Origin: a virus
Lineage: Duplodnaviria > Heunggongvirae > Uroviricota > Caudoviricetes
IMG/VR virus record: IMGVR_UViG_2565956717_000009
Location: 1 to 37,482 of that record
Length of the DNA stretch: 37,482 bases
Direction: 5' to 3' (one strand)
Shown: positions 25,495 through 29,830 of the stretch, one piece after another
Layout: each line of letters begins with the position of its first letter
Position numbering within the stretch: position 1 is the stretch's first letter
Translations under genes and position numbers: made by a program
The notes under the pieces: generated by a model
The model's database searches: none
What the model was told of the DNA's origin: nothing
The model's input: only the letters and a program-made list of their open reading frames with translations

Positions 25495-25764
25495 TCATTG
25501 CTTCATCTCCCTTTCCATTTCATCAATGTCAACGTCATCAGGAAGATGGGAGCAATACGCCTCTATACCATGATGATTTATCTCATACCCTTTGAACGTT
25601 ACCATCTGGCGCGTAATCTCAACTTCGTTCAGGAATCCGTCATCGCATAACTGCCTGGCTATTTTCGATTTGGTCTGGATTATTGGTAGTGCCTGTTCTT
25701 TCAAAGCGCATGATATTTGTGCATCCCATGCCTTTTCGAGAATGGCTAATTGTTTTTTATTCAT
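25495..25764 (-). CDS. Hypothetical protein downstream of helicase
   Basis: 89 aa, start overlaps helicase stop; not recognised. Confidence 0.45.
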
Positions 25765-27137
25765 ACGTCAGCCCCTTGTGCATATCGTCTGCCACGCGCA
25801 GCAGGTGCATTTGATGCTGTGCAAATCTGTCTGGCTTCATCCTGGTCACATGCAACAAAGTGTCCGTTGCAGAACCGCTGGTAAACCGTACCAAGTGAGC
25901 CAAAACGGTTTTTCGTCACAATGATTTCAGCAAATGGCGCGGCGCTACTGTTCTCGTCATATACCGCTTCCCGATAGAGCATGATGATTGAGTCTGCGTC
26001 CTGCTCAATGCTTCCTGAATCACGCAAATCTGCGTTTGTCGGGCGTTTGTTTGGTCGCTTCTCAACATCGCGTGAAAGCTGACTCAGGGAGATAACAGGC
26101 GTTTTCAGGTCTTTCGCCATCGCCTTCAGGCTTCCGGAGATGTGAGCAATTGCGAGGTCGTTGCGATCTGCTTTCGGCTTCTCAATCAGGCCAAGATAAT
26201 CCGCCATGATGAGTGACAGGTTTGGATTTTCCTGTTTGTGCCGTTCTGCGATTGAGCGTATTTCTTCGACCGATAACCGCGAGGCATCGACTACCCATAC
26301 ATCCAAATCTGCAAGCTGACTCATGCCGTTAGCAACGCGCGCCCAGCCTTCGTCATCCATCGATGCAGGATTTCGCAGCACGCTAACCGACATCCTCCCG
26401 GCGTTGGCAATGCTTCGCTCTGCAATCTGCAATGCGCTCATTTCCATCGAGAAAATCAATACTCCGCGCCGGACGTCAGAACCAGGAATAACGCGGCTTG
26501 CAACGCCTTCGGCAATCTTCAGCGCCAGTTCGGTTTTCCCCATACCAGGACGAGCGGCGATAATCACCAGGTCTTCCGCGTTCATCCCTCCGGTGATGGC
26601 GTCAAGTTCTTCGATTCCGGTCTTCAGGGTATCGGACTCTTCTCCGTTCCTCAGACGCCTGTCAAGCGTGTCAGTGTAGTCAGTGATGATTTCCCCTAAC
26701 CGTACAGGTTTAACCTCGTCACGGGGCTTTCTGATGGCTGAAAGACGCTTTACGAGCTCGTCCATCGCCTGACTCGATGTATCGATGGTTCCGCTCTGAA
26801 TTGGTTCACGCATTTCATCCATGATTTCCAGCACCAGACGGCGGTGATAGTTATCCGCGACCATTCCGGCATATCCCTTCAGGTTTGCGGCACTCGGGCA
26901 GTTTTTGCTGGTCATCAGGATTGACGTGAAATGCTCCTCTCCGCACGCCTCGGCAACCATCAGCGCGTCGATTAGGTTTCTGTTTCGCGCCTGCTTGCGG
27001 ATAACCTCGAAGGCTTTCCGGTAGAGCGGAATTGAAAACGCTTCCGGCTCCAGCGTTGCCAGAACGTCGCTGGCGGTTGGTGTTAATCCACCAATCAGCA
27101 GGCCACCGATAACGCTCGCTTCGATATCCTGTTTCAT
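25761..27137 (-). CDS. Replicative DNA helicase (DnaB-like, P22 gp12-type)
   Basis: 458 aa; Walker [18 protein letters not shown]; DnaB-like N-terminus; ATGA overlap with O-like gene. Confidence 0.9.
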
Positions 27138-28081
27138 GCAATCCCCCTGTCTGCAAACTTCCCTTCCCGTACTCCCGTTAACGAGTCTTCCCTCAGCAGG
27201 TAATCAAAATCTGCCGTCCAGCCCGTGTCGTTGTCTCCGAAGTAAAACGGCTTGGCCTGATGCACAAACGCCCTGACATACGCTCTGAAACCGTCCACGT
27301 TTGGCGTTTTCAGTTGCGGGATGATTTTCTTCAGGCGGCGTTTGCGTTTCTCGTTGACCGCAACAGCGTGTGGCAGTCTGTCACCGACTTCGGTGTTGTA
27401 GGCGTTCAGGAAGGATTCGTAGTCGATTCGTTCTGCCTTGCGACGTTCAGGTTTAACCTGCCCATCGCCTCCCCCATTGGGGGGTAGGGGGGTATTATTT
27501 ATATTCTTGTTAATACCTTCTTGTTCATGATGTGCGGTTGTTTGTGCGGCATCATGTGCGCTTTCATGTGCGGCATGTACGCTGAAAGCCGCGCCATTAC
27601 TGGCTTCATCATGTGCGGCATCATGTGCGGTTGTTTGTGCGGCATCATGTGCGGGTGAATTGTCCATTTTTTGAGCGTATTCATGGTAATTTGTGATGGT
27701 GATCACACGACCTTTTTGCTTCTCTCCATCAATGGTGATCATCCCCTCTTTCACAAAAACCTGAAGCATCCGCTCAACCTGATCACGGCTTGCCGGCTTG
27801 CCATGCCTGTCGCATAACTGAAGACCTAAATCAGCTGCTGTCACAACCAGTTGACCGGGTTGCAGATGCCATTCATGACCTTTGAAATTCGCTTTGTATG
27901 GCTTTCTGGCGGCATTCAGGAGAAGGTTTTCCCACAGGGTGCGAAGATAAACATCTTTCGCCCATGACTGTTTCAGAATGCTCCGGTACAACGGAATGTA
28001 ACCAGTTTTCTGGTTCTCCATCCTGTTGCTCCTGCGCTCGTGTGCGGCGCTGAAATCGTAGATTTTTGCTGTATTGCTCAT
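27134..28081 (-). CDS. Replication initiator, lambda O / P22 gp18-like, with internal origin
   Basis: [13 protein letters not shown]... resembles lambda O N-terminus (MTNTAKILNF...); central low-complexity HDAA repeats encoded by DNA iterons. Confidence 0.8.
27520..27660. repeat. Tandem direct repeats (candidate ori iterons) inside the O-like gene, next to an A+T-rich tract
   Basis: Repeated atcatgtgcggc / ttgtttgtgcggc units; adjacent A+T-rich stretch 27489-27517 (tattatttatattcttgttaatacc), as in the lambda ori layout. Confidence 0.5.
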
Positions 28082-28357: not shown

Positions 28358-28437
28358 TAATTACCTCGCTGGATGTTGTTAAAATTCCATTTGTATTTGA
28401 TCAGAACGCTCGGTCTTGCACACCGGGCGTTTTTTAT
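28358..28437 (+). ncRNA. oop: OOP-like antisense RNA overlapping the cII 3' end
   Basis: Plus strand gatcagaacgctcggtcttgcacaccgggcgttttttattggtgag matches recalled lambda oop 3' end/terminator; 5' end not mapped. Confidence 0.5.
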
Positions 28438-28678
28438 TGGTGAGTCCATCAAGCGCATACTTAAAAGCCCTGCTAATCGGACTGATGTCTGATGCCATTC
28501 CGAAAGCACACAAGACCGAAGCAATAAATCTCCAGTCCGTTCTGCTTATCTTCGATTCATGACAGCCAATCATCTTTGCCAGACCGCGCTTGGTAAGCGT
28601 TGACAGGTTGATGAGTAAATCAGTTTCAGCGCGATCAATTTCTCGCTGTGTTGGCTTGCTGTAACTTGCTTGTGTCAT
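28379..28678 (-). CDS. cII: CII-like transcriptional activator
   Basis: 99 aa; C-terminus ...TNKKRPVCKTERSDQIQMEF matches recalled lambda CII tail; N-terminal region diverges. Confidence 0.75.
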   Translation of the reverse strand: MTQASYSKPTQREIDRAETDLLINLSTLTKRGLAKMIGCHESKISRTDWRFIASVLCAFGMASDISPISRAFKYALDGLTNKKRPVCKTERSDQIQMEF

Positions 28679-28815: not shown

Positions 28816-29025
<210 letters not shown>

Positions 29026-29042
29026 TTAGTACATGCAACCAT

Positions 29043-29106
29043 TATCACCGCTAGAGGTAAAATAGTCAACACGCACGGTGTTAGATATTTATCCCTTGCG
29101 GTGATA
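29043..29106. promoter_or_regulatory. Operators OR1-OR2-OR3 with divergent PR and PRM (lambda-type)
   Basis: OR1 29043-29059 tatcaccgctagaggta, OR2 29067-29083 caacacgcacggtgtta, OR3 29090-29106 tatcccttgcggtgata; PR -35 TTGACT and -10 GATAAT on the minus strand. Confidence 0.8.
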
Positions 29107-29113
29107 GATTTAA

Positions 29114-29830
<717 letters not shown>

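Follow-up and report, generated by a model that had tools for sequence, protein, structure and literature searches.

A likely replication origin of short direct repeats within the O-family initiator gene of a lambdoid prophage

In lambdoid phages, the rule is that a set of repeats followed by an A+T-rich tract lies between the parts of the initiator gene that encode the N- and C-terminal domains (PMC7466680, PMC8022706). Here we analyzed a 37,482-nucleotide viral sequence (IMG/VR record IMGVR_UViG_2565956717_000009, positions 1 to 37,482; hereafter the window) that carries eight 12-nucleotide (nt) direct repeats and an A+T-rich tract within an O-like initiator gene. The sequence evidence indicates that the origin of this lambdoid (P22-like/CUS-3-like) prophage likely lies there, within the stretch of its O-family initiator gene that codes for the interdomain linker. 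A first-pass annotation had proposed a lambda-style origin within O with different iterons, and this proposal is borne out by the O family of the initiator, the position of the repeats between the domains, the A+T-rich tract distal to them, conservation at the DNA level, and co-inheritance of the repeats with the N-terminal domain. The architecture itself is not that of lambda, as its units are 12-nt direct repeats built on an asymmetric 8-nt core and grouped into two arrays, in place of four palindromes of about 19 bp.

The annotated lambda origin contains four 18-bp dyad-symmetric iterons (ITN1-4) spaced by 20, 24, and 23 bp, followed by the A+T tract. In the O gene of HK97 we identified four palindromes of about 19 bp (ATTAGCCGACTTGGCTAAT) with spacings of 23, 24, and 20 bp, directly beside the recombination joint described below. 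Plasmid iteron origins, such as those read by RepA, pi, and TrfA, have direct asymmetric sites beside an A+T-rich unwinding element that are bound by winged-helix domains; these iterons usually measure 17-22 bp and are situated outside the rep gene, and the initiators belong to other families. In P22, gene 18 contains four repeats of about 20 bp (PMC8022706), and in Salmonella phage L six imprecise 11-bp repeats in gene 18 (TGTCCAACGGA) were proposed as the origin (PMC8022706). The HK97-type replication module of Shiga toxin (Stx) phages, termed "Eru2", is described in PMC8044961, which mentions no origin.

Position and layout of the repeats

The initiator is a member of the O family, with a Pfam Phage_rep_O match (PF04492) at amino acids (aa) 20-132 (E 3.7e-15, 56.7 bits; cut-off 28.7) and a match to phrog_345, "replication initiation O-like", across its full length (E 9e-100). 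Its gene and the elements within it are as follows.

27134..28081, minus strand: O-like replication initiator gene, 315 aa, from the open reading frame (ORF) and the Pfam and PHROG matches
27656..27676, minus strand: left edge of the DNA-conserved region, GCTCAAAAAATGGACAATTCA, containing an A6 tract, from third-position entropy
27608..27655, minus strand: left iteron array, units U1-U4 (CCCGCACATGAT GCCGCACAAACA ACCGCACATGAT GCCGCACATGAT), from the sequence and the repeat finders; U1 27644-27655, U2 27632-27643, U3 27620-27631, U4 27608-27619, in frame
27575..27607, minus strand: inter-array spacer, 33 nt, GAAGCCAGTAATGGCGCGGCTTTCAGCGTACAT, encoding 11 aa
27527..27574, minus strand: right iteron array, units U5-U8 (GCCGCACATGAA AGCGCACATGAT GCCGCACAAACA ACCGCACATCAT), from the sequence; U5 27563-27574, U6 27551-27562, U7 27539-27550, U8 27527-27538, in frame
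27494..27526, minus strand: A+T-rich tract, 33 nt, GAACAAGAAGGTATTAACAAGAATATAAATAAT, 21% G+C, encoding 11 aa, from composition
27460..27493, minus strand: G+C-rich block bounding the A+T tract, with the palindrome CCCCC-ATT-GGGGG at 27471-27483 on the plus strand

Tandem units of 12-13 bp had been noted inside the initiator coding region. Their location was confirmed by the sequence and by both repeat-finding approaches, and the unit length was corrected to exactly 12 nt. Tandem Repeats Finder, one of the checks that the annotation had suggested, reported period 12 at 27543-27576 and 27607-27654 and period 24 at 27526-27653, and a separate repeat search recovered the same repeat families. On the plus strand the units read CATCATGTGCGG and TTGTTTGTGCGG; on the coding minus strand the unit is xCC GCA CA(T/A) xxx, with the core CCGCACA(T/A). 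All eight units share one orientation and the reading frame of the gene, and they occupy codons 143-185 of 315, between the N- and C-terminal coding parts. Units U6-U8 are a near-repeat of U1-U3. The repeat search found no inverted repeats within the arrays, and the 8-nt core is asymmetric.

The exact heptamer CCGCACA is present in seven copies within 124 nt here. Counting both strands of the 37.5-kb window gives 10 copies in total, compared with 5.1 in shuffles. With 0.017 copies expected per 124 nt (Poisson P ~8e-17), chance clustering of the cores is excluded. One further exact copy lies at 28041-28047 on the minus strand (TCGTGTGCGGC on the plus strand), where it spans codons 12-14, encodes Ala-His, and is about 390 nt promoter-proximal of the arrays. 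We considered this copy as a part of the origin and left it out because the residues there are not conserved in relatives; it may be a chance occurrence or a lineage-specific auxiliary site.

The spacer ends in a 9-nt degenerate copy of the unit (AGCGTACAT), and the two thirds nearer the promoter are conserved in the family described below (alignment by eye; third-position entropy 0.3-0.9). This conserved part, 27587-27607 on the minus strand (GAAGCCAGTAATGGCGCGGCT), is fairly well maintained as DNA across genera, and we recognized no known binding motif in it.

The A+T-rich tract that the first-pass annotation placed next to the repeats is the lowest-G+C 33-mer region in the gene and among the lowest 0.4% of the window. 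It lies directly promoter-distal of the repeats, as it does in all relatives and in lambda, and we presume from its position and composition that it is the DNA-unwinding element. The region beyond it reaches a G+C content of 0.73 over 27457-27493; this block belongs to the HK97-type C-terminal module, is present in HK97 too, and could clamp or bound the unwound region. Lambda has an inverted repeat at the place equivalent to the CCCCC-ATT-GGGGG palindrome. No DnaA boxes were found near the region, as the three TTWTNCACA matches in the window are all distant and no more frequent than expected by chance.

Two other repeats were seen in the HK97-type C-terminal coding part of the gene. A 12-nt tandem duplication (ACAAACGCCCTG x2.1) lies within 27262-27288. 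An inverted match at 27262-27279 (18 nt, 78% complementary to a two-unit piece) was judged to be chance because the HK97-type module is unrelated by descent to the origin cassette.

As in lambda, the origin in the window would be embedded in the initiator gene, with an origin-binding domain encoded on its N-terminal side and a partner-recruiting domain on its C-terminal side. The two also share the order of repeats followed by an A+T-rich tract downstream of pR, their N-terminal domains belong to the same Pfam family, and most relatives of the window cassette carry a lambda-type C-terminus and P loader. They differ in the sites, which are four 18-bp dyad-symmetric iterons in lambda and eight 12-nt direct units in two arrays 45 nt apart in the window, and in the partner, which is P loading DnaB in lambda and presumably a phage DnaB-type helicase in the window. 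HK97 O and P22 gene 18 ("Eru2A" in Stx phages) are closest in the C-terminal 130 aa, where the window initiator is 95% identical to HK97 O. They also share the G+C-rich block after the A+T tract and the same 458-aa DnaB-type helicase gene immediately afterwards (gp12 in P22), but their N-terminal domain and repeats are unrelated in sequence to those of the window. Phage L offers a precedent for short units, with 11-12 bp repeats that outnumber those of lambda in an O/gp18-like gene of a P22-like phage, and there too the origin was inferred from sequence alone (PMC8022706); its repeat sequence is different, and PMC8022706 reports that the initiator is only distantly related.

Plasmid iteron origins are similar to the window in having direct, asymmetric sites next to an A+T-rich tract, although no Rep_3-type Pfam match was found in the window. 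The locus thus fits a known kind of origin in position, order, and modular logic. It lacks one classical feature, since there are no long palindromic iterons: dyad-symmetric iterons of about 18-20 bp, usually four and about two helical turns apart, are found in lambda and HK97 and not in the window.

Constraint on the repeats across relatives

Relatives were collected by scanning one genome per species with the N-terminal domain, which yielded 53 Enterobacterales loci from genera that include Xenorhabdus, Yersinia, Enterobacter, Citrobacter, Pantoea, Morganella, and Tatumella. The 49 analyzable genes consist of 45 of these loci, the window, and three phage genes, with N-terminal identities of 60-85%; the family-wide values given here refer to this set. 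All 49 follow a common plan of LPAH-xx-AH-xx-AH, a spacer of approximately (D/N)E(A/P)SNGAAS, then AAH-xx-AH-xx-AHHEQ and an A+T tract rich in Asn, Lys, and Ile codons. Within an array, successive units are offset by 12 nt without exception (235 of 235). Across the spacer, the start of one unit and the start of the next are 45 nt apart in 45 genes; the remaining four genes have 57 nt instead. The arrays are arranged 4+4 in 20 genes and 3+3 in 22, with a few 4+3, 3+4, 3+2, and 2+3.

The N-terminal domain and the linker show opposite patterns of constraint. Over codons 20-135, the amino acid entropy is 0.70 bits and the third-position entropy 1.24 bits, a normal coding pattern of fixed amino acids and free third positions. 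The linker (codons 136-195) is reversed, with an amino acid entropy of 1.26 bits and a third-position entropy of 0.71 bits (Mann-Whitney P = 1e-7 for third positions, linker versus N-terminal domain). At the left edge of the conserved region, codons 137, 138, 140, and 141 have third-position entropies of 0-0.3 bits, and at the junction between the right array and the A+T tract CAT-GAA-CAA-GAA has a third-position entropy of zero.

Codon usage within the units divides the genes into two classes. In class A (19 genes, including the window) the unit Ala is encoded by GCA 119 times and GCG once, and in class B (30 genes) by GCG 128 times and GCA twice; GCC and GCT are never used for the unit Ala, whereas the four Ala codons are about equally frequent elsewhere in the same genes. 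This tally was made on units defined by protein sequence (A then H or Q), and its GCT counts all come from a non-repeat YAQK motif. For His, CAT predominates in the units at 102:1 and 158:6, compared with about 1:1 elsewhere in the same genes. Approximately a third of class B units are CCGAGCAT (GAG, giving Glu-His) instead of CCGCGCAT (GCG), with the "silent" G fixed, and class A units are invariant at that second base (C in 124 of 124). Based on these Glu units, the two initiator classes apparently prefer different bases and also differ in how much variation they tolerate.

Together, the codon entropies and the Ala and His codon bias across the 49 genes indicate that the selected element is the DNA word CCGC(A)CAT or CCG(C/A)GCAT, repeated every 12 nt, and that the peptide is merely carried along. 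The His and Glu counts come from a list of units picked by DNA pattern, which inflates the information content of that list; the unbiased measures are the alignment-based entropies and the protein-defined codon counts.

The converse explanation is that the repeats matter as protein only, forming a flexible, perhaps metal-binding Ala/His-rich linker, and that their likeness as DNA comes from duplication and unequal crossing-over. In all relatives the in-frame units are indeed translated into a regular (x-A-H-x)n peptide, the linker is predicted to be disordered (predicted local distance difference test, pLDDT, <50 beyond aa 141), and unit number shifts by recombination, with 3, 4, 8, or 9 units among proteins whose N-termini are 98% identical and variants that have lost the 93 nt between U1-U3 and U6-U8. 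We nevertheless consider this explanation very improbable. The residues flanking A-H vary freely, and the codon that precedes each Ala combines an amino acid entropy of 1.6-2.4 bits and a variable first base with an invariant C in the third position. The change of Ala to Glu in a third of class B units leaves the "silent" G in place, and the choice of Ala and His codons is near-absolute in the units and unbiased elsewhere. Gene conversion would homogenize the variable 4 nt of each unit as well, yet these remain diverse, and the spacing and inter-array distance are fixed to the nucleotide. For these reasons we favor constraint on the DNA.

The variants in unit number also bear on how many units an origin of this kind would need. 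Three-unit forms are found in prophages of E. coli and Shigella with otherwise intact replication modules. One of them, locus L060 (3300-3520, set against window 27440-27720), lacks exactly 93 nt between U1 and U6, a clean deletion that keeps the reading frame, and its prophage retains an intact-looking repressor, cro, cII, initiator, helicase, and nin genes. Given this gene set, three units beside the A+T tract may suffice. This is reminiscent of lambda, for which PMC7466680 cites a report that the two iterons nearest the A+T tract suffice in vitro.

The first-pass annotation also described a His-rich shadow ORF at 27499..27684. This ORF does exist, with 61 aa on the same minus strand as the initiator and a one-base shift in frame. 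As a gene it was rejected: stop codons interrupt the frame within the repeats in 18 of the 49 relatives, including the closest Klebsiella ones, which indicates that the ORF is a by-product of the repeats.

The DNA-binding domain and the repeat core

An AlphaFold2 model of the initiator, built from a 39-sequence alignment, has pLDDT values of 83-93 over aa 40-130 and places two features in the N-terminal part of the gene.

27662..28081, minus strand: N-terminal winged-helix DNA-binding domain, aa 1-140 (folded aa 30-140), from the AlphaFold2 model
27782-27784, minus strand: codon for Asp100, in the predicted recognition helix aa 99-111, from the AlphaFold2 model

The modeled helices at 82-88 and 99-111 form the helix-turn-helix, with residue 82 opening one helix and residue 100 the other, and strands at 115-120 and 124-129 form the wing (hairpin 115-129). 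Foldseek matches in the PDB were all to winged-helix proteins but were weak and generic (E >= 0.01), and they support the fold class only. A PDB sequence search yielded nothing of use, with a single match at E 0.45.

Residue 100 separates the two repeat classes completely. It is Asp in 19 of 19 class A genes and His in 30 of 30 class B genes, so that Asp100 pairs with GCACA and His100 with GCGCA or GAGCA in 49 of 49. Residue 82 (Ala versus Ser, Thr, or Leu) also splits the classes without exception (49/49), and further good discriminators at residues 117, 118, and 125 are located in the wing. A neighbor-joining tree of the domain with columns 82 and 100 removed requires at least four class switches, and residue 100 follows each of them. 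In an independent set of database proteins, Asp100 occurred without Glu units in 31 of 32 cases and His100 with Glu units in seven of eight. This result is an association and not proof of contact, because codon 100 and the repeats could be linked or recombine as one block. Within the association, Asp100 probably reads the fifth base of the core CCGCACAT, an A that is the third base of the Ala codon.

Two other explanations can be weighed at this point. The conserved element might act in RNA, as an mRNA structure or as a binding motif for a protein or small RNA, and so regulate how the initiator-helicase transcript is translated or how stable it is. The region folds slightly better than shuffled sequences (z = -2.27, with 7 of 200 shuffles as good), and the A+T tract is rich in A-R-N triplets. 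However, no Rfam match was found anywhere in the window, the repeats, which are direct, do not base-pair among themselves, and we saw no pattern of compensatory changes. RNA function would also leave the residue 100 association and the fixed 12-nt and 45-nt geometry unexplained, and of the alternatives considered it is the most remote.

The units could instead be genuine protein-binding sites that serve autoregulation, copy control, handcuffing, or the exclusion of related phages, while replication would start elsewhere. DNA conservation and covariation with the DNA-binding domain would speak for binding-site function rather than for initiation as such, and plasmid-borne lambda iterons take part in a replication-inhibition phenotype (PMC3349717). 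Against this, the units abut a conserved A+T-rich tract in the lambda arrangement and are located where every characterized O-type initiator has its origin (PMC7466680, PMC8022706). The core occurs only three more times in the window, as isolated copies, though no scan for other repeat arrays was made. Regulatory roles would be additional to an origin role, not exclusive of it. We regard sites without an origin as unlikely, slightly less so than a role in the protein alone, and prefer the reading that the units belong to an origin.

If so, a series of events analogous to those in lambda can be proposed. Transcription from pR would express the initiator, and its N-terminal winged-helix domain would bind the eight 12-nt units (core CCGCACAT) in two arrays of four, 45 nt apart. 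Since the units are asymmetric and all in the same orientation, binding is probably head-to-tail, with one domain per unit, and not by a symmetric dimer per palindrome as in lambda. The resulting nucleoprotein complex, an analogue of the "O-some", would destabilize the adjoining 33-bp A+T-rich tract, and the C-terminal domain (HK97/P22 gp18 type) would bring in the phage's own neighboring DnaB-type helicase. We infer that initiator binding, unwinding, helicase recruitment, and the start of replication all take place at this site.

Several observations weigh against this interpretation. The 12-nt direct, asymmetric units are unlike the dyad-symmetric 18-19-bp iterons of lambda and HK97, and because they are short, direct, and asymmetric, the binding mode of those phages is not simply transferable. 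In pairwise comparison the N-terminal domain is weakly similar to lambda O (32% over 69 aa). Structural support is modest, with a 39-sequence alignment, a mean pLDDT of 71, and Foldseek E values of at least 0.01. The 49 sequences are related, so part of the conservation and of the residue 100 association reflects shared descent or linkage, and since codon 100 is only about 130-250 nt from the repeats, a linked or recombined block could contribute. Finally, our literature search on the repeat strings, iterons, P22-like phages, CUS-3, and Stx phage replication found no paper on this CCGCACAT repeat type.

Modular exchange, operon, and distribution

The initiator gene is a mosaic in which an N-terminal domain and origin cassette of their own type are fused to an HK97/P22-gp18-type C-terminal domain. 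In a sensitive DNA search, 27134-27508 matched the O genes of HK97, ST104, BTP1, and many Stx phages at about 96% identity, and 27498-28034 matched those of Klebsiella and Yersinia phages at 75-80%; the same two-part split appeared in the protein alignment. A three-way DNA alignment placed the switch after AAGAATATAAAT, up to which the sequence is of the Klebsiella type, with HK97 sequence starting from AATACCCCCC. The recombination joint is therefore at the distal end of the A+T tract, at approximately 27494-27508.

The Klebsiella and Yersinia phages combine this N-terminal domain and its repeats with a lambda-type C-terminus, and a lambda-P-type gene comes next. This combination of a lambda-O-type C-terminus and a P-type loader gene is found in 46 of the 49 relatives. 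In the window and one other locus (L013), the C-terminus is of the HK97/P22 type and a DnaB-type helicase gene comes after it; another locus (L045) has a third C-terminal type, and there are at least two further types among database proteins (P0017; P0031/P0047). The joint is always at the A+T tract, which makes the conserved A+T junction the exchange point. Across the 49 loci, the type of C-terminus covaries with the type of downstream gene, and the repeats covary with the N-terminal domain. Such a division of labor between origin specificity and partner specificity is classical in lambdoid phages (cited in PMC2629481, PMC8022706).

These data allow a broader proposal, which we offer tentatively and think somewhat less probable than its negation. 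A lineage of the O family may have swapped palindrome-dimer iterons for head-to-tail 8-bp cores at a 12-bp pitch in two arrays 45 bp apart. Specificity would rest on one contact with the fifth base of CCGCACAT (Asp100 with A, His100 with G), which would have switched several times to give two groups that do not cross-react, and the A+T junction would be the crossover onto at least five helicase- or loader-recruiting domains.

The setting of the origin is the early-right operon of a lambdoid prophage, on the minus strand, as seen from ORFs, Pfam matches, and a promoter scan. Its other members and the neighboring repressor gene are listed here.

25761..27137, minus strand: DnaB-type replicative helicase gene, 458 aa, directly downstream and overlapping the initiator stop codon
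28084..28356, minus strand: 90-aa ORF between cII and the initiator gene, matching phrog_2519 (unknown function) at E 2e-57
28379..28678, minus strand: cII, from Pfam Phage_CII
28816..29016, minus strand: cro
29041..29069, minus strand: pR-like promoter TTGACT-17-GATAAT, from a consensus scan only
29117..29830, plus strand: lambda-type cI

The predicted pR would serve cro, cII, the 90-aa ORF, the origin-containing initiator gene, and the helicase gene. The helicase (Pfam DnaB_C, E 9e-78; DnaB, E 3.9e-13; phrog_19) is the presumed partner of the C-terminal domain of the initiator. A gene of the same size occupies the position of the 90-aa ORF in loci L060-L062. A strong terminator-like hairpin with a T-run lies at 28403-28433 on the plus strand, opposite the cII strand and overlapping the 3' end of cII; its position and orientation are those expected of an oop-like antisense RNA, without an Rfam match. 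The products of cI (29117..29830) and cro (28816..29016) appear to be nearly identical to those of lambda, and the immunity region appears lambda-type; the replication module beside this lambda-type-looking region is not lambda's. CUS-3 shares its replication genes with the window but presumably has a different cI/cro/cII set.

The initiator gene is 98-99% identical in CUS-3, JEP4, Gally, HF4s, and dozens of Stx2a-converting phages, in all of which it is annotated merely as a replication protein. Its N-terminal half and the repeats were found in 275 of 5426 complete E. coli genomes, and the cassette is also carried by plaque-forming phages such as CUS-3 and HF4s.

The element is ordinary in kind; it extends the lambda paradigm and overturns none of it. 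Three details are of real but moderate interest: direct units at a 12-bp pitch, their grouping in two arrays 45 bp apart, and a candidate specificity switch in which Asp or His at residue 100 goes with A or G in the core. The locus provides a testable origin for a replication module present in about 5% of complete E. coli genomes, in the K1-specific phage CUS-3, and in many Stx2a-converting phages, in which replication drives toxin gene dosage. The family is also an unusually clean natural experiment, in which one stretch of DNA encodes both an initiator and the sites with which it co-evolves, with a candidate switch of one base and one residue, unit numbers from 3 to 9, and a fixed joint at which the helicase-recruitment domains are swapped.

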